This document shows positions 193 through 40,877 of a DNA stretch of 40,877 nucleotides, piece by piece (positions within the stretch are counted from its first letter, which is position 1; each line of letters begins with the position of its first letter). The DNA is from a virus. Under the pieces are notes generated by a model. The model was given only the letters and a program-made list of their open reading frames with translations, did no database searches and was not told the origin of the DNA. A program made the position numbers and the translations under genes. The stretch is from UHGV virus genome UHGV-1515682; one strand, given 5' to 3'.

Positions 193-1443
193 GTGCTTAC
201 CGATACAAAATTAAAGAACCTCAAGCCACAGGACAAACTGTACAAAGTTTCCGATCGTGACGGGCTGTATGTAGCTGTGCTTACGTCAGGTACGGTCTCG
301 TTTCGCTATGACTACCGTATCAACGGTCGCCGCGAAACACTGGTAATCGGGCAGTATGGGCGTGACGGTATCAGCCTGGCAGAAGCGCGAGAAGAACTGA
401 TTGCTGCAAAGAAGCTGCTTAAAGCAGGCCAGTCGCCGGCTGCGGCTAAACGTGACGGTATCAAAAAGATTCGTGGTGCCGAGACGTTTGCGGTACATAC
501 CGACAGTTATATGAAACACGTCATCCTGGCTGACAGTACCCGCGCAATGAAGCAGGCGGTGATCGACCGTGACATACTTCCGGTTCTTGGCAACAAAATG
601 ATGACTGAAATTACCACATCGATGGTTCGTGATTTGTGTGACCGGATTGTCGAACGCGGTGGTCGGGCAACAGCAGTACAGGCAAGGGAGATCATCAGCA
701 GCGTATACCGTCACGCCAATGACCGTGGTCATGGTTTGTTTAATCCTGCGGCTGACATTAAACCTTCGTCTATCGCCATATTTAAACCAAGAGAGCGAAC
801 ACTGACACCAGAAGAAATTGGCCTGTTCTTCCGCACGCTGGATGCCATTGGTGCTATGGGCACTATGAAAATGGCTTTAAAGCTGGTGCTTATCACTATG
901 GTTCGTAAAGGCGAATTCACCAACGCAACGTGGGATGAAATAGATTTTAAAAAATGGACATGGACAATTCCTTCAGACCGCATGAAGGGAAGCCGGGCGC
1001 ACGTTATTTACCTGCCTAAACAGGCTCAGGATATATTGGTCGGGTTGCAGATGTGCGCTGGTGGAAGTGAATATCTGGTTCCTGGTCGTTACAATTTCCG
1101 GAAGCCATTATCTAATGCCGCGTTGAACTCTCTGATCGACAGAACGGTGAAAATAATAAATGAAGATGGTGAGCATATTCAGGGCTTCACCGTACACGAT
1201 ATGCGCCGTACAGCCAGTACGTTGTTGCATGAGGCTGGTTATCCTTCAGACTGGATTGAAAAGGCTCTGGCACATGAGCAGAAAGGTGTGCGCGCCGTAT
1301 ATAACAAAGCGGAATACGCCAGACAGCGCGCCTACATGTTGCAGCAGTGGGCCGATATGATTGATTCCTGGATTAACGGGGAGCATACGGATCTGATTCC
1401 GTTCTCCCCGTCGAAGTTTGAGAAGTGGATGGCGGGGGAATAA
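193..1443 (+). CDS. int: Phage tyrosine integrase (site-specific recombinase), GTG start
   Basis: 416 aa ORF; C-terminal HDMRRTASTLL...YNKAEY region typical of tyrosine recombinase catalytic domain; N-terminal arm-binding-like domain; position at prophage edge. Confidence 0.9.
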   Translation: MLTDTKLKNLKPQDKLYKVSDRDGLYVAVLTSGTVSFRYDYRINGRRETLVIGQYGRDGISLAEAREELIAAKKLLKAGQSPAAAKRDGIKKIRGAETFAVHTDSYMKHVILADSTRAMKQAVIDRDILPVLGNKMMTEITTSMVRDLCDRIVERGGRATAVQAREIISSVYRHANDRGHGLFNPAADIKPSSIAIFKPRERTLTPEEIGLFFRTLDAIGAMGTMKMALKLVLITMVRKGEFTNATWDEIDFKKWTWTIPSDRMKGSRAHVIYLPKQAQDILVGLQMCAGGSEYLVPGRYNFRKPLSNAALNSLIDRTVKIINEDGEHIQGFTVHDMRRTASTLLHEAGYPSDWIEKALAHEQKGVRAVYNKAEYARQRAYMLQQWADMIDSWINGEHTDLIPFSPSKFEKWMAGE

Positions 1444-6336: not shown

Positions 6337-6921
6337 TTATTGTTTGCTTTTTTCGTTCTGGTTGATGACAAATTCAATGTAACTTTCGATCTTTGCTTTC
6401 TCTGTTTCAGGTAACAATGCGTAGCGCGAGCGGTCATAGTTGATAGTTGCAGGGTCGTGCGGGTGAATCAGTAGTTCATATCCGTGACGCCCGAATGCAG
6501 ATGCAACATTCTCCAGGGTGGAAATGGAAACGCTGACCTCATTGTTTAACAGGCGGCTGATTGTCACCTGGGCTACGCCGGATGCGCGGTGAAGTTTTCC
6601 CTGTGTTGAAAGGTCGCGGCTTTCGCTCATCCAGCGTTCCAGGTTGTGAGCCGCCAGCTGGCCAATGTCGCTTGGGCCGACAGGCTGAAAACCTTCCTGA
6701 GAAAGCGAGCGATCGATATCAAGCCAGTTACGGGGTTTATTGGCGGCAGCTTCAATTTTTCGTGCAACCTGGTCGCCGATAACCTTCTTGCCAAGAGCCC
6801 AGCGGTTTACCAGATTTGCCTGAGTTCCAAGTTTTTCTGCCATCCGCGTCTGAACACCATTGAATTCACGGTCGATCAAGTCGTTGAGATTTTGCCTGCG
6901 GACGTCCTGGATACTTTTCAT
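6337..6921 (-). CDS. CI-like repressor with two HTH (XRE-type) regions and no recognisable S24 peptidase domain
   Basis: 194 aa; two XRE-like HTH stretches (…TRMAEKLGTQANLVNRWALGKK… and …ASGVAQVTISRLLNNEVSVSISTLENVA…); divergent from cro-like gene across an operator-rich intergenic region; no S24-like Ser/Lys motifs. Confidence 0.65.
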   Translation of the reverse strand: MKSIQDVRRQNLNDLIDREFNGVQTRMAEKLGTQANLVNRWALGKKVIGDQVARKIEAAANKPRNWLDIDRSLSQEGFQPVGPSDIGQLAAHNLERWMSESRDLSTQGKLHRASGVAQVTISRLLNNEVSVSISTLENVASAFGRHGYELLIHPHDPATINYDRSRYALLPETEKAKIESYIEFVINQNEKSKQ

Positions 6922-6976: not shown

Positions 6977-6991
6977 TTACCCAACAGGTAA
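6977..6991. promoter_or_regulatory. Dyad operator-like site ttacccaacaggtaa (OR region)
   Basis: Perfect TTACC-N5-GGTAA in repressor/cro intergenic region. Confidence 0.55.
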
Positions 6992-7021: not shown

Positions 7022-7050
7022 TTGTTACCTTATGGGTGAATATTTATTAT
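7022..7050 (+). promoter_or_regulatory. Putative rightward early promoter (PR-like): TTGTTA-17-TATTAT
   Basis: -35 7022-7027, -10 7045-7050; dyad site 7025-7039 lies between the hexamers. Confidence 0.4.
7025..7039. promoter_or_regulatory. Dyad operator-like site ttaccttatgggtga (OR region)
   Basis: TTACC-N5-GGTGA (one mismatch), overlapping predicted PR spacer. Confidence 0.5.
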
Positions 7051-15767: not shown

Positions 15768-15790
15768 TGAGTTATGCCTTCCGTGGCTGT
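15768..15790 (-). terminator. Rho-independent terminator downstream of tRNA (minus strand)
   Basis: Minus-strand GCCCGG-TTCG-CCGGGC followed by T7 (A-run 15768-15774 on + strand). Confidence 0.55.
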
Positions 15791-15917
15791 ACGGGTTTAC
15801 AGCATGAAGTCATCGCAATGGCGTCCTGCTGTAAAAAGGGCGGTGATAGTCCTTCAAGGGAAACCATCACCGCCAAGCACCTGGAACTTCTGGCATCACG
15901 GTCCTTAGGCGTGATTC

Positions 15918-15994
15918 TGGCGTGGCATGCAGGATTCGAACCTGCGACCAACCGCTTAGAAGGCGGTTGCTCTGTCCAACTGAGCTAATGCCAC
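15918..15994 (-). tRNA. tRNA-Arg (anticodon UCU)
   Basis: Hand-folded cloverleaf: acceptor GTGGCAT/ATGCCAC, D-arm GCTC…GAGC, anticodon stem ACCGC/GCGGT with loop CTTCTAA, T-arm GCAGG-TTCGAAT-CCTGC, discriminator G, encoded CCA. Confidence 0.85.
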
Positions 15995-16315
15995 AACGCT
16001 GAGAGCACTTAGCCTGTTAAGGCGCCACACTTTGTCGCGGCTCCATAAATGCTCTCATCGTTGTACCCTCGTCTCTTCCGAGGCGTCACACCGAATCGCC
16101 GGGATGGTGAATCCCGTGCGCGGAATAAAACCGCTCGACTTGCACATTCCGGCTACCTGGTTCGTTTGCCCGAGCAAGGGAGGGTGCCCCTTAAACGGAT
16201 CCAGACCGCTATCGGCGCATGTGCCATACGCCGTACTGCTCAAAATAAAAGCTCACTCCACCTGTTTAATTTAACGACAAGCCAGTCAGGTTAGTAACCA
16301 GAATGAGCTCTTTAG

Positions 16316-16330
16316 TTACCTGAAAGGTAA
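16316..16330. promoter_or_regulatory. Dyad operator-like site ttacctgaaaggtaa upstream of head gene operon
   Basis: Perfect TTACC-N5-GGTAA; same sequence as site 35925. Confidence 0.5.
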
Positions 16331-16420
16331 TAATTCACGCGTTAAATGTCAACTTTCTACGATAAATAAATCATATGTGGTTAAATTGGTAATAATTTAA
16401 TTGCGTACGGAGTCATTGAT

Positions 16421-20313: not shown

Positions 20314-20364
20314 CGCCTGTTATTAACCTGTGGGTCGTAACAGACCCACTAATGGAGAAAGAAG

Positions 20365-33758: not shown

Positions 33759-34445
33759 TCAGAAGAACCCTGCCTTGTCGTTGATGTACTCCGCGTGCGT
33801 CTGGATATCACGCAGGCATTTGCTCACACCAACGATGTAACAGAACATGGTGGTCAGCTCCGCCGCCGCGCCCGATACGTCGTGCCCGTCTTCCTGTAAC
33901 TGGTTCAGCAGATTCATCAGCAGTGAGTTCTCCGTCAGGCCGAGAACACCAGACGGCGAATGAATCAGGCTACGGTAGCCTGGCTTCAGTGGGGCACTGT
34001 AGGTTTTGTTCTCTATCTTCATCGCCTGCATTACTGCTGACGCCGTGGCGTTGGCTACCTGGTCGGCAACCATCTTTATGCGTTCTTCCTGCGGGAGCGA
34101 GTTTTTAATGTAACTTCCGGTGCGGCGGATCTGAGGAAGAACCTCACCTGTAACCCATTTACGAAAGCGGTATGGGATAGTGCCTGGTGTCACCGCATCG
34201 CGGCAGCGGAGGATCAGTGTGTAGAGGCCTGACTCGTTGATAATATTGGTTTCGCCTTGACGGCCTAAGTTAAATTTAGCCCTTTCATCATCATCAAGAG
34301 ATTTTATTGACATAGTGGGGTTTGTCAGTTGAAGAGCTTTAATAACGTCTTTGGCAACAAACCAAGGATTTCCATCAATAACAATGGCTCGAATGGTTGC
34401 TTCTGATTCAAAATGAAAAACAGATGGGGTTACGTTAGCAGTCAT
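33759..34445 (-). CDS. Bro-N domain antirepressor-like protein
   Basis: 228 aa from ATG 34445; N-terminal Bro-N signature (FHFESEATIRAIVIDGNPWFVAKDV…GLYTLILR…RFRKWVTGEVLPQIRRTGSY); C-terminal ~70 aa homologous to the product of 35591-35848. Confidence 0.75.
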   Translation of the reverse strand: MTANVTPSVFHFESEATIRAIVIDGNPWFVAKDVIKALQLTNPTMSIKSLDDDERAKFNLGRQGETNIINESGLYTLILRCRDAVTPGTIPYRFRKWVTGEVLPQIRRTGSYIKNSLPQEERIKMVADQVANATASAVMQAMKIENKTYSAPLKPGYRSLIHSPSGVLGLTENSLLMNLLNQLQEDGHDVSGAAAELTTMFCYIVGVSKCLRDIQTHAEYINDKAGFF

Positions 34446-34721
34446 AGTGATCACCTTTGTAGTTAGGTTAATCACCACTACCGACGCCAATCGGTTGGTG
34501 GTGAACTGTGCAGGGTTGGCGTAACCGGCTACAAAGGACCCGGCGCACCTTTCGGTGCCCCCACACAGCCCACCATAGAATAGGTGCGCTTTACACATAA
34601 AAAAACCGCTTATGCGGCATATGTGCCTCTGTAGTAATCCGGGACGCCAATCCCGGCACTGGATTTTGCCAGTGCCCGATTACTATGGCACAAGAGGAGT
34701 GCGATGTAAATTTACCGTAAA

Positions 34722-34736
34722 GGTAATGATAAGCGC
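34722..34736. promoter_or_regulatory. Dyad operator-like site ttaccgtaaaggtaa
   Basis: Perfect TTACC-N5-GGTAA in divergent region between ant and 34840 gene. Confidence 0.5.
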
Positions 34737-34804: not shown

Positions 34805-34819
34805 TTACCTTTAAGGTAA
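34805..34819. promoter_or_regulatory. Dyad operator-like site ttacctttaaggtaa
   Basis: Perfect TTACC-N5-GGTAA 21 bp upstream of ATG 34840. Confidence 0.5.
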
Positions 34820-34839: not shown

Positions 34840-35568
34840 ATGGAAGTTTTCTGGATAGTTGTTGGTGTGGTTGCGGTGATTATTTACGTTATCAACCAGA
34901 ACAAGACTAAGATCTCTGATCGTACGGTCGTTAATCATAACAAAACGATAAAGACCGAAGATGGGGAGATAACGATTAATCGTACACAGGTGATAGAACA
35001 CACCTCTACTCAGTTTCAAAAAACTGGAGGTAATGCGCCTAATATTTCCGCACCTCCTGCTTATGATAGTGCGGTAATCCAGACATATTATAAACAGCAG
35101 GAGTTAGCAAAAGAGAGGCAACTGATTCAGCCAAAGCCGTTTACAGCTGAGATTCCACCTGGAGTGTCAACGCGTCCGGCATATCATGGAAGATTCCCTG
35201 GTGATGACATATCGTCTCAGTCATCTAAAAAAGCACCTCAGGCAATATCAGAGCCAGCAAGAATACCTTCTGTATCGCCGCCAAAAGAAGAATCAGCTAA
35301 CAGAGTTTCAAGTGGTAGCAAGCAGTGCTTGCGATGCAGAATAAACCTTCCATATGAAAAATTCAGGAAATCGTCAAAAAATCCAGATGGATTGACTAAA
35401 TGGTGTGCAAGGTGTCTCGATGGCCCAAAGAATACACGCCATATGAAGTGGTGCCCAATTTGTAATGTCCGCAGAAAACGAACCAGCTTTTACCCTAATA
35501 ATCAAAATGCGGACGGCTTAATGGCATGGTGCAAAACGTGCTGGGATGAGCACAAAGCGAAACGATAG
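34840..35568 (+). CDS. Membrane-anchored protein with two C-terminal zinc-ribbon-like repeats
   Basis: 242 aa; N-terminal TM helix; repeated C-x2-C…DG…W-C-x2-C units. Confidence 0.55.
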   Translation: MEVFWIVVGVVAVIIYVINQNKTKISDRTVVNHNKTIKTEDGEITINRTQVIEHTSTQFQKTGGNAPNISAPPAYDSAVIQTYYKQQELAKERQLIQPKPFTAEIPPGVSTRPAYHGRFPGDDISSQSSKKAPQAISEPARIPSVSPPKEESANRVSSGSKQCLRCRINLPYEKFRKSSKNPDGLTKWCARCLDGPKNTRHMKWCPICNVRRKRTSFYPNNQNADGLMAWCKTCWDEHKAKR

Positions 35569-35584
35569 GCCGCTCTTGCGGCCT
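35567..35584. terminator. Hairpin between convergent genes
   Basis: aggccgc-tctt-gcggcct stem-loop overlapping stop of 34840-35568. Confidence 0.45.
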
Positions 35585-35590
35585 TTAAAT

Positions 35591-35848
35591 TTACCGGGTT
35601 TGTTTTCGTAATTGTTCGGCACAATAGTCGAGATGTGTTTGCAGATCCCGCATAGACATCTGTGAGCTGGTGACGTAGTTAATCAGTGCAGTCAGTTCGG
35701 CAAGTGGGCCATCGACATTAAATCCATCCTTATCGAGATCCCGGAGTAATTTCATCAAGTGCGATCCCTCCACCAGTGACCTGACGCCTCCCGGCGTGTG
35801 AATCCTTTCGGTAAATCCGTCTTCCAGTGGATAGTGATACTGCTGCAT
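35591..35848 (-). CDS. Small antirepressor-like protein behind a LexA box
   Basis: 85 aa from ATG 35848 (MQQYHYPLEDGF…) with GGAGAAG RBS; homologous to C-terminal domain of Bro-N protein; near-consensus LexA box 20 bp upstream. Confidence 0.6.
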   Translation of the reverse strand: MQQYHYPLEDGFTERIHTPGGVRSLVEGSHLMKLLRDLDKDGFNVDGPLAELTALINYVTSSQMSMRDLQTHLDYCAEQLRKQTR

Positions 35849-35867
35849 CTTATCTTCTCCATGCAAT

Positions 35868-35887
35868 AACTGTATGTTTATACAGTA
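35868..35887. promoter_or_regulatory. LexA (SOS) box AACTGTATGTTTATACAGTA
   Basis: CTGT-N8-ACAG with AT-rich spacer, 17/20 to TACTGTATATATATACAGTA; overlaps TATAAA -10-like hexamer on minus strand. Confidence 0.65.
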
Positions 35888-35924
35888 ACAAATAATTTGT
35901 TTGCTATCCAGCACGTTTTGCAAA

Positions 35925-35939
35925 TTACCTGAAAGGTAA
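35925..35939. promoter_or_regulatory. Dyad operator-like site ttacctgaaaggtaa
   Basis: Perfect TTACC-N5-GGTAA upstream of LexA box. Confidence 0.5.
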
Positions 35940-36043
35940 TATCTATTCGTATTTACAGCATTTCTATCCATATGTGGTTTTTCAGGTAATAGAATAACCA
36001 GATATGCGGCGCAACGGGTGCTGCGACTATCTGGAGATTTAAC

Positions 36044-38695
36044 ATGACGGTCTCAACCGAAGTTGACCACAACGAATACACTGGTAACGGAGCTACGACA
36101 TCATTTCCGTATACCTTCCGTATTTTCAAAAAATCCGACCTGGTTGTTCAGGTGTCTGACCTGAACGGGAACGTAACAGAATTGGTTCTGGATACTGACT
36201 ACACAGTAACCAATGCTGGAGGATATAATGGCGGTAATGTAATTCTGTCGAAGGCGTTGGCTAACGGTTATCATATTTCTATATCACGAGAACTCCCGGT
36301 TACGCAGGATACTGATTTGCGTAATCAGGGTAAGTTCTTCGCTGAGGTACATGAAGACGCGTTCGATAAACTGACAATGCTTATTCAAAAGTGTTTTTCA
36401 TGGATGAGGTTAGCACTTATAAAACCAAGCATTCTGGCTAACTATTATGATGCAAAAAATAATAAGATATCAAATCTAGCAAATGCCACTGACAGAAACG
36501 ATGCTGTCAATAAAGGTTATGTTGATGATCTTTTTACTGGAGGTGTAACGCCTACACCTAACAGCGCTAAAAACGATATTTTTACAAATCACCAAAGAAA
36601 GATTGTAGCTACGATGCCGCTTCTTTTTCCTGAATATGATGCGATTATGGCTGCTAACCCGTCAGCAACTTATATGTATCCTCAAGGATTCTGCGTTAGC
36701 GAAGATTTGATATACATCACTTATCCATTTGAGCCTAAACAGACGAATAATGTCGTCGCAGTATTTAACATATCTGGTATTTATCAAGGTTATTTCTATG
36801 TTCAGGCTGGCGGCCCAGGCTTCGCTGCTGAAGGAATCGTGGTTACGTCAGACTATGGCCCCAAAAAAATGTTTGTTGGTCACACAAACGGAATACTGCG
36901 TGAATTTAATATGGAGGGGGCATTATACGGAAGCAATCTGCCTCTTGTACAAAACCATGATGTTGGATTATTCAACCAGTTCAGCTACAGAAGAGGTATA
37001 TGGCTCGTTGAGCAGAATGCGCCAGAAGTAGGACAGAAAATCACAAGAACTGTACTTGCAGTGTTCGACAGTGGTTTCAATCGCCTGTCAACTATAACGC
37101 TGCCGTTACATGATGTTGGGTATGTAACTAAAAGCACCTCACCTTATGCGCCTTATTTCAACAAGCGTCAGGGTATTGCGGTAGGTGATAACTACTTTGT
37201 CTGTGGCTATGGCGGCTTCATAGCTGATGGGGCAGGAAGCGCAGGATATAACGAATATCAGGGCAGCAAAGTTTTTAACCCTGACGGTACAAAGCGAACT
37301 GAATCAATGCTTCATCCTCAGGCCATGATGGATTTAATGAAAGCCGCAGGATTGAACGTCACTCGCATAGAAAATGAAGGCGTTTGTGTTTCTCAGGATG
37401 GAAAATCCATTTATTCACTTTACATTCATCAGGAAAGAACTGGCTCTGAACCTTACAATTCAGGTTTGGTTATTTTCGAAGATTTCTCCACTGATAAAGA
37501 TGCTATCGATTTTACACCTGCATCCAGGCTTTACCGCGGATTTGATATCGATCACGCGAGCATTGGGGTATATCCCCGTAGTGCGAAGGGGATTGTTAAC
37601 CCTGTAGATGGTACGTTGTTCACTAACATGACTGAAATTCTTCGCTATATGCAGGAGATGAGTCAGAAGGCATTTAATTTTTACACAGGGACTGTCAGCA
37701 TTGCTGATATATCTGGCGTGGCAATCCCTTCCAGCACATATGTTGAAATACTGAATGCGAATAATCAGACTTTTATAGTCAACTATTATTCATCTGATAG
37801 TGGTATTAGTTATTTGGTTGCAACTAATCCTTCTGGTGACTTTGTATTTGTGCGCCAGCGACCGGCACAGTGGGCATCTAACTTAACCATTCAGCAAAAC
37901 GCAGATCCTGATACAAACCAATTAAACCGCATCACTGCATCATCATATGCCGGTGCAACTACAAACTCTCAGAAAATATTGGTCCTTGACCAGCAGGCTA
38001 CAGCTAGCGCAAATAGCTTGGTATTGGGCGGTAGTTCTTCTGTGTTTAGGTCTGCCACCACGGTGGATATTGCATGCAACAGCGACCCGACAGCATTGGG
38101 AGGAACCATACGCTGGCGGTTTTATGATACAGGTCTTCGCCCGTTTGCTGACAATACCTATAATTTTGGTCAGGCATCGTTTCGTATTAAAGACGCCTAC
38201 TTTGCAAATGCCCCAACCGTTTCATCAGATGCCACGCTGAAAACCAATCCCGAGGCAATATCAGATTTAAGTGAAATGCTTTCTTCTGATAGAGACAGCA
38301 TTCTTGATGCCTGGGGCGATATTTCTGTTGTGGCGTATCGATGGCTCGACGCTATATCCATGAAGGGCGATGGTGCCAGATGGCATTTTGGCGTCATGGC
38401 TCAGCAGGTAAGGGATGTATTCTTGGCGCACGGAATTGATGGAACCAGATTTGGCCTTCTTTGCTATGACGAGTGGGACGATATTTTTGAGCCGGTAATC
38501 GCGACTAAAGAGATTACCGATACGTCTGGTGAGTTGGTCACCGTCGAATATGACACCGGAGAACAGAGGCTGGTTAAAAAAGCGGGTAGTTCATGGGGTA
38601 TACGGCCTGACCAGTGCGCTTGGCTTGAGGCTGCATATCAGCGCCGTCGATGCGATCGTATTGAAGAGCGACTCGAACTATTGGAATCAAAATAA
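36044..38695 (+). CDS. Tailspike/tail fibre with C-terminal intramolecular chaperone (S74-like) domain
   Basis: 883 aa; conserved tail-fibre N-terminus; C-terminal SDATLKTN…HFGVMAQQV…GLLCYDEWDD resembles the autoproteolytic chaperone domain; GGAG RBS. Confidence 0.75.
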   Translation: MTVSTEVDHNEYTGNGATTSFPYTFRIFKKSDLVVQVSDLNGNVTELVLDTDYTVTNAGGYNGGNVILSKALANGYHISISRELPVTQDTDLRNQGKFFAEVHEDAFDKLTMLIQKCFSWMRLALIKPSILANYYDAKNNKISNLANATDRNDAVNKGYVDDLFTGGVTPTPNSAKNDIFTNHQRKIVATMPLLFPEYDAIMAANPSATYMYPQGFCVSEDLIYITYPFEPKQTNNVVAVFNISGIYQGYFYVQAGGPGFAAEGIVVTSDYGPKKMFVGHTNGILREFNMEGALYGSNLPLVQNHDVGLFNQFSYRRGIWLVEQNAPEVGQKITRTVLAVFDSGFNRLSTITLPLHDVGYVTKSTSPYAPYFNKRQGIAVGDNYFVCGYGGFIADGAGSAGYNEYQGSKVFNPDGTKRTESMLHPQAMMDLMKAAGLNVTRIENEGVCVSQDGKSIYSLYIHQERTGSEPYNSGLVIFEDFSTDKDAIDFTPASRLYRGFDIDHASIGVYPRSAKGIVNPVDGTLFTNMTEILRYMQEMSQKAFNFYTGTVSIADISGVAIPSSTYVEILNANNQTFIVNYYSSDSGISYLVATNPSGDFVFVRQRPAQWASNLTIQQNADPDTNQLNRITASSYAGATTNSQKILVLDQQATASANSLVLGGSSSVFRSATTVDIACNSDPTALGGTIRWRFYDTGLRPFADNTYNFGQASFRIKDAYFANAPTVSSDATLKTNPEAISDLSEMLSSDRDSILDAWGDISVVAYRWLDAISMKGDGARWHFGVMAQQVRDVFLAHGIDGTRFGLLCYDEWDDIFEPVIATKEITDTSGELVTVEYDTGEQRLVKKAGSSWGIRPDQCAWLEAAYQRRRCDRIEERLELLESK

Positions 38696-40590: not shown

Positions 40591-40741
40591 CATGGCATTT
40601 TTCATGGTACTGATTTCCGGTGACGGTATATAAAACGGTACGAGAAAAATTCATCTTTGGAAAAATGTTATCACTCAATTGGTTATGTGTGTCGTAAATA
40701 ATTGAGTGGGAATGATTTGACCCTGCACTATGAATGAACAA

Positions 40742-40768: not shown

Positions 40769-40877
40769 TGTGCACAGAAAACCCCCAGCTAGGCTGGGGG
40801 TTCCGGAAAGCTTTCAGCTTTGAGCCAGTTATTAAAACCCCTTTTGATTTGTTAAAACACCTTGCGGTCTGGCAACT

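Follow-up and report, generated by a model that had tools for sequence, protein, structure and literature searches.

The locus described here raises the question of whether a gene for an 85-aa protein, lying behind a near-consensus LexA box, lets DNA damage induce the prophage that carries it, and if so by acting on which repressor. We analyzed the whole stretch of DNA in which the locus lies, a window of 40,877 bp. The DNA sequences that it matches are those of podoviruses in the genus Uetakevirus, of the epsilon15/phiV10 type (TL-2011b with 96%, ZX5, phiV10 and others), which identifies it as an E. coli prophage of that type. It is probably integrated, since it runs from an integrase gene to an att core (Table 1). 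The same core has been assigned to the 3' end of guaA in ZX5 (PMC9782041), and a truncated match to the sRNA STnc490, 3' of the core, is possibly host DNA. The patterns detected make it very probable that the locus is the SOS-sensing arm of an antirepression switch of the type found in the Salmonella phage SPC32H, with the small gene, ant, encoding the antirepressor and with Rep, encoded about 29 kb away, as its presumed target.

Table 1. Coordinates of features in the 40,877-bp window (nt, nucleotides; aa, amino acids).
Feature	Position	Strand	Remarks
Integrase gene	193-1443		window start
rep, two-HTH repressor, SPC32H Rep orthologue	6337-6921	minus	194 aa
Two operator-like sites	6977-6991, 7025-7039		divergent rep/cro-like intergenic region
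Gene of Bro-N protein with Ant-like C-terminal ~80 aa	33759-34445	minus	228 aa; Pfam Bro-N 7.8e-20
C4 antisense RNA gene	34494-34580	minus	Rfam RF01695, 79.5 bits against gathering score of 45
isrK-type sRNA gene, own terminator	34599-34675	minus	upstream of C4; Rfam RF01394, 76.8 bits against 50
Two operator-like sites	34712-34726, 34805-34819		divergent promoter region of isrK-C4-BroN unit and 242-aa gene
242-aa gene	34840-35568	opposite to ant	between ant and Bro-N module
G+C-rich hairpin	35567-35584		6 nt past ant stop codon; terminator scan
ant, antirepressor, SPC32H Ant orthologue	35591-35848	minus	85 aa; ATG at 35848
Shine-Dalgarno GGAGA of ant	35856-35860	minus	8 nt before ATG; read from sequence
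LexA (SOS) box AACTGTATGTTTATACAGTA	35868-35887		unique in window; 19 nt before ant ATG
TATAAA hexamer	35882-35877	minus	within LexA box; not conserved
Candidate ant promoter	35882-35910	minus	-35 TGGATA 35910-35905, 17-nt spacer, -10 TACTGT 35887-35882
Repressor-operator-like palindrome ATTACCTTTCAGGTAAT	35924-35940 (motif 35925-35939)		between ant and tailspike gene
att core ATTGAGTGGGAATGATT	40701-40717		window end

The first-pass annotation of this DNA had placed a near-consensus LexA box just upstream of the 85-aa reading frame, and both its sequence and its position hold, the distance to the ATG being 19 nt where 20 bp had been given. AACTGTATGTTTATACAGTA is the sole site in the window with no more than three mismatches from the E. 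coli LexA 20-mer consensus TACTGTATATATATACAGTA, and 100 dinucleotide-preserving shuffles yielded no match to the 20-mer. A box that is unique in the window and absent from the shuffles is a real observation and not the product of chance. The shorter pattern CTGT-N8-ACAG is found at three sites in the window against 0.55 expected, and those at 15787-15802 and 20328-20343 were rejected as LexA sites on account of their G+C-rich spacers and more than three mismatches from the 20-mer. A single base in 20 separates the window 20-mer from the LexA site annotated at p95, the SOS promoter that drives tum in phage 186. By homology, the box would be bound by LexA.

Alignment of the intergenic region between ant and the tailspike gene from eight phages (the window, SPC32H, epsilon15, Tyrion, BUCT554 and three Klebsiella phages) showed the box at an identical position in all of them; five had CTGT-N8-ACAG in perfect form, and in the remaining three, from Klebsiella, one half-site was weakened, with ATGT for CTGT. 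Among six E. coli relatives, some of them chromosomal prophages, CTGT and ACAG were invariant and the spacers read GTTT, ATTT, AAAT or AAATAC. Invariant half-sites around a variable spacer are the pattern that would be expected under selection on LexA contacts. A natural variant was also informative. Over the 1449 bp surrounding ant, SPC32H and SPC32N are told apart by two bases only, and a change from ACAG to AAAG at one of them, the equivalent of window position 35872, breaks the LexA box. Kim and Ryu reportedly found in 2013 that the two genomes are two nucleotides apart overall and that the change in the LexA box of SPC32N makes Ant constitutive and drives this phage into lytic growth. Our comparison of the two sequences is consistent with that account.

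It had been suggested from the first pass that a TATAAA hexamer overlapping the LexA box serves as the -10 element of ant. The hexamer is indeed there, on the minus strand, but its role as a -10 is doubtful, since the orthologous promoters do not conserve it: the position reads TATGTT in SPC32H and epsilon15 and TATAAG in Tyrion. A better candidate promoter for ant would be TGGATA-N17-TACTGT, in which the -10 hexamer coincides with the first six bases of the LexA box. All eight aligned phages have the core CTGGA of its -35 element, the full hexamer being TGGATA in five of them and TGGAAA in those of Klebsiella, and the geometry parallels that of annotated p95 of phage 186, where the -10 TACTGT also lies inside the LexA box. 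A sigma-70 promoter scan called none for ant at its threshold, and we therefore infer the exact promoter from homology. Under both assignments of the -10 element, the LexA box would overlie the predicted ant core promoter.

An alternative explanation could be that ant is not under the control of the LexA-like palindrome, which would either be an AT-rich palindrome arisen by chance or serve the tailspike gene, divergent from ant. The empty promoter scan and the ATGT half-site of the Klebsiella relatives would both suit such a reading, but it would not account for the absence of matches from the shuffles, for E. coli relatives holding the half-sites invariant while the spacer varies, or for the location of the SPC32N change within the box; moreover the box is 19 nt from the ATG of ant and about 155 nt from that of the tailspike gene, on the far side of the operator palindrome. 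We regard this alternative as highly improbable, and LexA control of ant as the preferred reading.

The protein encoded behind the box could be identified with confidence. A phmmer search of PDB with Ant returned a single match, the 86-aa chain E of 5D50, named 'Anti-repressor protein' (E 1.4e-46, residues 2-84 against 3-85), and the identity to SPC32H Ant, a stand-alone protein, is 87.1% over the full length; identity of 87% to a crystallised chain settles the identification. With tblastn, Ant was found in 35 phage records, with a coverage of the protein of 80% or more in each, and these include SPC32H 'ant: anti-repressor protein' (SPC32H_020), epsilon15 gp19 and phiV10p24. General domain resources were less telling. 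Ant falls in phrog_450 of PHROGs (E 7e-48), which is listed as of unknown function, and has no Pfam match above cut-off and no NCBIfam model; the one match below it, to DUF724, scored 17 bits where 38.4 was required and was dismissed as noise, and Pfam detected neither a Bro-N nor a KilAC (ANT) domain in the 85-aa protein.

The reading frame of ant, on the minus strand, opens MQQYHYPLEDGF. A 126-aa version in the mechanical list of open reading frames (35591-35971, start at 35971) was rejected because its extension contains the LexA box and because, in SPC32H, the ant coding sequence and the crystallised protein of 86 aa begin at the inner ATG, both starting at the position of MQ(R)QYH. The extension also falls within the part of the intergenic alignment that contains indels. 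In the same eight-phage alignment, the GGAG of the Shine-Dalgarno sequence is present in the five non-Klebsiella phages and displaced in the Klebsiella phages. The hairpin that follows ant is common to it and the convergent 242-aa gene, and is probably a bidirectional terminator, with a good T-run on the plus strand only. Upstream, ant is divergent from the tailspike gene, which begins at 36044 on the plus strand, and the same layout of the two genes is found in SPC32H, epsilon15, BUCT554 and ZX5.

Rep, the presumed target of Ant, matches chain A of 5D50, 'Repressor', with E 3.5e-42 over residues 1-190, and chain A of 5D4Z, the Rep C-terminal domain, with E 3.6e-20. It is 43.8% identical to SPC32H Rep, the N-terminal domain reaching 52% and the C-terminal domain 40.6%. 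The first reading of the repressor as a protein with two helix-turn-helix regions and no S24 autocleavage domain was borne out by Pfam, which placed HTH_3 in two stretches and other HTH families in both halves and gave no Peptidase_S24 at E up to 1. Rep and Ant travel together, being found in 36 and 35 phage records, respectively, that are essentially one and the same set. With Rep at 44% identity, and 41% in the C-terminal domain to which Ant binds, we infer binding between the Ant and Rep of the window from homology with the SPC32H pair.

It could also be proposed that Rep cleaves itself through a cryptic domain when stimulated by RecA, and that Ant has a different function. No evidence in support of this was found, and it is at odds with the absence of any S24 match in Pfam, with the alignment of both halves of the 194-aa Rep, each an HTH domain, to the crystallised SPC32H Rep, and with PDB 5D50 itself, which is a complex of Rep and Ant. 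We consider self-cleavage of Rep to be extremely improbable, and return to antirepression by Ant as the means by which Rep would be inactivated.

Sites at which Rep might act are abundant. The motif TTACC-N5-GGTAA, with one mismatch allowed, occurs 16 times in the window against 0.65 expected, and most of the sites lie between open reading frames. Two are in the divergent region between rep and a cro-like gene, and SPC32H rep is flanked by the motif too. Another, the palindrome ATTACCTTTCAGGTAAT, lies upstream at a distance of about 40 bp from the LexA box; its TTACC and GGTAA are invariant in all eight aligned phages, and the epsilon15 site aligned to it is annotated protein_bind 'repressor; lysogeny' in AY150271.2. 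The stretch singled out in the first-pass annotation happens to stop, at 35939, at this operator-like motif (35925-35939).

In SPC32H, by the accounts of Kim and Ryu in 2013 and Kim and colleagues in 2016, Rep is said to stay uncleaved and LexA to repress ant. The switch in the window would work in a similar way. In the lysogen, Rep would keep phage promoters off via ATTACC-N5-GGTAAT operators, and host LexA would occupy the SOS box over the ant core promoter, so that ant would be silent. DNA damage would activate RecA, LexA would cleave itself, and ant would be transcribed; the 85-aa Ant would then bind Rep, by analogy with the SPC32H Ant tetramer dismantling the Rep tetramer. Rep would leave its operators uncleaved, lytic genes would be turned on, and the switch would be reversible if LexA recovers. 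In SPC32H the Ant tetramer binds two Rep dimers and thereby breaks the DNA-binding Rep tetramer (PMC9638917), and the sequence of SOS response, LexA self-cleavage, production of antirepressor and inhibition of the lytic repressor has been reviewed (PMC7380047, citing Kim and Ryu 2013).

Resemblance to SPC32H goes beyond the two proteins. The phages belong to the same genus, their Ant proteins are 87% identical and of equal length, and the two-HTH Rep is orthologous over its full length; in both, ant is transcribed away from the tailspike gene and lies a long way from the immunity region, the LexA boxes coincide in the alignment and share one 16-nt core, found on the opposite strand, and the operator-like motif is ATTACC-N5-GGTAAT. 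The window differs from SPC32H in its host, E. coli, in a Rep of a different sequence group (44%), and in the inversion of the central four bases of the box. It further differs in the 242-aa gene between ant and a Bro-N module. That module, consisting of isrK, C4 and Bro-N genes, is present beside ant in the E. coli lineage and absent from the two Salmonella loci that could be judged by their flanks (SPC32H and 65FD).

The first-pass annotation had described the locus as a Tum/Gifsy-type mechanism, in which LexA acts through an antirepressor on a repressor that is not cleaved. As a statement of logic this stands, given the orthologues, the gene order and the position of the box, but the family is that of SPC32H Ant. 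Phage 186 Tum shares with the window a LexA box over the promoter, a small antirepressor and a non-cleaved repressor, and at p95 the likeness extends to a LexA site one base apart with the -10 TACTGT inside the box. However, Tum, with 146 aa and a DinI-like half, is unlike Ant, and the repressors targeted are unrelated. In a single BLASTP comparison, Ant and Tum could be aligned, with gaps, over 47 aa at 16.9 bits and E 0.056, which is not significant, and Pfam and NCBIfam detected no DinI match in Ant; membership of Ant in the Tum family was rejected on both grounds. Since no relationship to Tum was detectable, the term 'Tum/Gifsy-type' can name the logic and not the family. The antirepressors GfoA, GftA and GfhA of Gifsy-1, -2 and -3 (Lemire et al. 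2011, PMC3121763) are likewise small and LexA-controlled, and their genes, too, lie outside the immunity region; the repressors are uncleaved, and the mechanism is reversible and open to cross-talk. Compared by description, the Gifsy antirepressor gene follows a dinI homologue in a LexA operon, whereas ant in the window is apparently a single-gene unit with no adjacent dinI found. Kim and Ryu reportedly view SPC32H Ant as structurally distinct from the Gifsy antirepressors.

A second antirepressor module, under separate control and new relative to the first-pass annotation, is formed by the Bro-N gene. It had been noted that the 85-aa protein is homologous to the C-terminus of a Bro-N protein, and BLASTP agrees, with 41% identity over 78 aa (E 3e-16); the Bro-N protein also matches 5D50_E, through its C-terminus (1.1e-13), and phrog_450 (4e-36). 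Its counterpart in ZX5 is ORF4, to which it is 82% identical overall and fully identical from about residue 74 to the end. Overexpression of ORF4 lowered lysogens from about 10^9 to 10^6, i.e. about 1000-fold, in a paper that makes no mention of the small ant gene (PMC9782041). The ZX5 record lists ant as 'hypothetical protein'.

Directly upstream of the Bro-N gene are genes for a C4 antisense RNA and an isrK-type RNA. The C4 loop CCUUUGUAG (34537-34529) is complementary over 9 nt to CUACAAAGG (34462-34454), which overlaps the Shine-Dalgarno sequence of the Bro-N gene, and CGCCAA in C4 (34521-34516) is complementary over 6 nt to UUGGCG (34491-34485) just upstream of it; isrK holds repeat copies of both C4 target sequences. 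With these pairings, the arrangement of isrK, C4 and Bro-N is a P1/P7 immI-like architecture. A 279-aa version of the Bro-N reading frame (33759-34598) overlaps the C4 RNA gene and was for that reason rejected as an artefact, the gene starting at 34445. The window shares with P1/P7 immI (c4, icd, ant) and with Gifsy-1 isrK-anrP the placement of isrK/C4-family RNA genes directly upstream of the antirepressor gene, and the complementarity of C4 loops to the ribosome-binding region and an upstream repeat. It departs from them in showing no icd-like open reading frame that we noticed between the C4 gene and that of the antirepressor, in having an antirepressor that joins Bro-N to a domain resembling SPC32H Ant, and in having a repressor of the SPC32H Rep type and not the P1 C1 type.

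Both isrK and the whole isrK-C4-BroN module are kept in ZX5, phiV10, TL-2011b and Tyrion. In ZX5 and phiV10 the module directly follows ant on the same strand, and with such a tandem, LexA-controlled read-through into it is possible in those phages. The 242-aa gene has been inserted between ant and the module in the window, TL-2011b and E. coli strain PAR, and may uncouple ant from the module in the window. In the divergent promoter region of the module and the 242-aa gene, a promoter-like site (34755-34726) terminates on the operator-like site at 34712-34726.

An Ant-like domain is also carried by the Bro-N protein, whose counterpart in a close relative is active, so that the small Ant is perhaps neither the sole nor the essential route to induction. 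Carried further, this would make the Bro-N protein, under isrK/C4 RNAs and Rep operators and not under LexA, the working antirepressor, with the small Ant an accessory or a factor acting in trans on other prophages. Consistent with such an arrangement are the homology of the Bro-N C-terminus to Ant, the effect on lysogens of overexpressing ZX5 ORF4, identical from about residue 74 (PMC9782041), and documented cases, such as FsoA, of repressor-controlled antirepressors that hit non-cognate repressors (PMC3121763); the conservation of Ant at 87% against 44% for Rep would also suit a trans-acting factor of broad specificity. However, a gene repressed by Rep could not initiate induction alone, no Bro-N module accompanies ant at its locus in Salmonella Uetakeviruses such as SPC32H and epsilon15, which are reliant on the small Ant, and ant and its LexA box were retained in every relative examined. 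We consider a leading role for the Bro-N protein unlikely, and prefer the small, LexA-controlled Ant as the SOS-responsive antirepressor.

A more tentative proposal is that, in the E. coli branch of these phages, both modules belong to a two-tier circuit that employs one protein domain twice, with LexA-gated Ant as the trigger and the Bro-N-fused Ant fold as a second tier under isrK/C4 control and operator-like sites; we hold this to be possible, though on balance doubtful. The fusion could be a feed-forward lock that engages when Rep falls, or an anti-immunity factor on superinfection. Of the whole system, only this fusion of an Ant domain, controlled by C4 and isrK, might merit experiment. 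The much stronger conservation of Ant (87%) than of Rep (44%) also raises the possibility that Ant might cross-induce heteroimmune Uetakevirus prophages.

The switch of LexA, Ant and Rep is already known from the congeneric SPC32H, both genetically and structurally, including a crystal structure of the complex, and the present analysis adds no new biology to it but locates it in an E. coli prophage. Because the system is known and every inspected E. coli copy of ant is annotated 'hypothetical protein', the main value of the finding is for annotation. Where ant is recognized, the prophage that carries it would be expected to be SOS-inducible, by a route that is reversible and involves no proteolysis. 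Of 5426 complete E. coli genomes, 531 (about 10%) carry the locus of ant with its LexA box, and an O157:H7 strain that was inspected is one of them.

Ant, the small antirepressor, is 87% identical to its orthologue in Salmonella phage SPC32H, versus 44% for Rep, its presumed target, and 41% for the Rep C-terminal domain. One possible reading of this asymmetry is that a small conserved patch is what Ant recognises; another is that Ant is able to cross-induce heteroimmune relatives. Of 5426 complete E. coli genomes, 531 carry the locus, and the gene is labelled "hypothetical protein" in all the E. coli phage and chromosome records inspected (phiV10, ZX5 and three E. coli chromosomes). Pfam and NCBIfam hold no model for the small protein, and its PHROGs family, phrog_450, is listed as of "unknown function".

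The palindrome TTACC-N5-GGTAA occurs 16 times in the window against 0.65 expected, mostly between ORFs; the sites include some on both flanks of rep and one upstream of ant. In the epsilon15 GenBank record the aligned palindrome site is labelled a repressor-binding site and, if that label is right, nearly every transcription unit of the window would be under Rep control. All eight aligned phages keep a block at 35945-35995 (TATTACC....AAACC.TATATG.AT), which has the operator palindrome on one side and the tailspike gene on the other; the IHF site of the epsilon15 record aligns to 35939-35961, and this conserved block probably represents the promoter region of the tailspike gene together with a half-operator.

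Features located in the window
Feature	Position	Strand	Remark
TTACC-N5-GGTAA sites	136, 6203, 6265, 6977, 7025, 7362, 9284, 9346, 12780, 12798, 15700, 16316, 33673, 34712, 34805, 35925		
rep	6337-6921	minus	
tRNA-Arg(tct) gene	15918-15994	minus	
isrK-type sRNA and C4 antisense RNA genes	34494-34675	minus	directly upstream of Bro-N antirepressor gene
242-aa gene	34840-35568	plus	phrog_6762, PHROG of unknown function
ant	35591-35848	minus	
att core ATTGAGTGGGAATGATT	40701-40717		same as attP/attB core for guaA in phiV10, ZX5
Truncated STnc490 Hfq-binding sRNA match	40780-40877		after att core

The arrangement of the isrK and C4 RNA genes, the C4 loops and the Bro-N antirepressor gene resembles immI of P1/P7, and both 34454-34462, in the ribosome-binding region of the Bro-N gene, and 34485-34491 are complementary to the C4 loops. 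Since these two RNA genes occupy the DNA just ahead of the Bro-N coding region, a 279-aa ORF from 34598 was rejected as spurious and the gene start is 34445. Inserted between ant and this unit is the 242-aa gene, which shares a hairpin terminator with ant, is present in phage TL-2011b and E. coli strain PAR and is absent from phiV10 and ZX5. Its product carries CxxC zinc-ribbon repeats at the C-terminal end, with weak resemblance to endonuclease VII, HNH and Lar-like proteins, and the gene looks like a moron.

The several hundred bases after the tRNA-Arg gene (15995-16420) contain no convincing ORF, and the stretch is flanked by a G+C-rich CTGT-N8-ACAG site (15787-15802) and by two of the operator-like sites, 15700 and 16316. 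At the far end, the att core is followed by the STnc490 match, which is possibly host DNA, and the window thus appears to be an integrated prophage that ends a little beyond the core.
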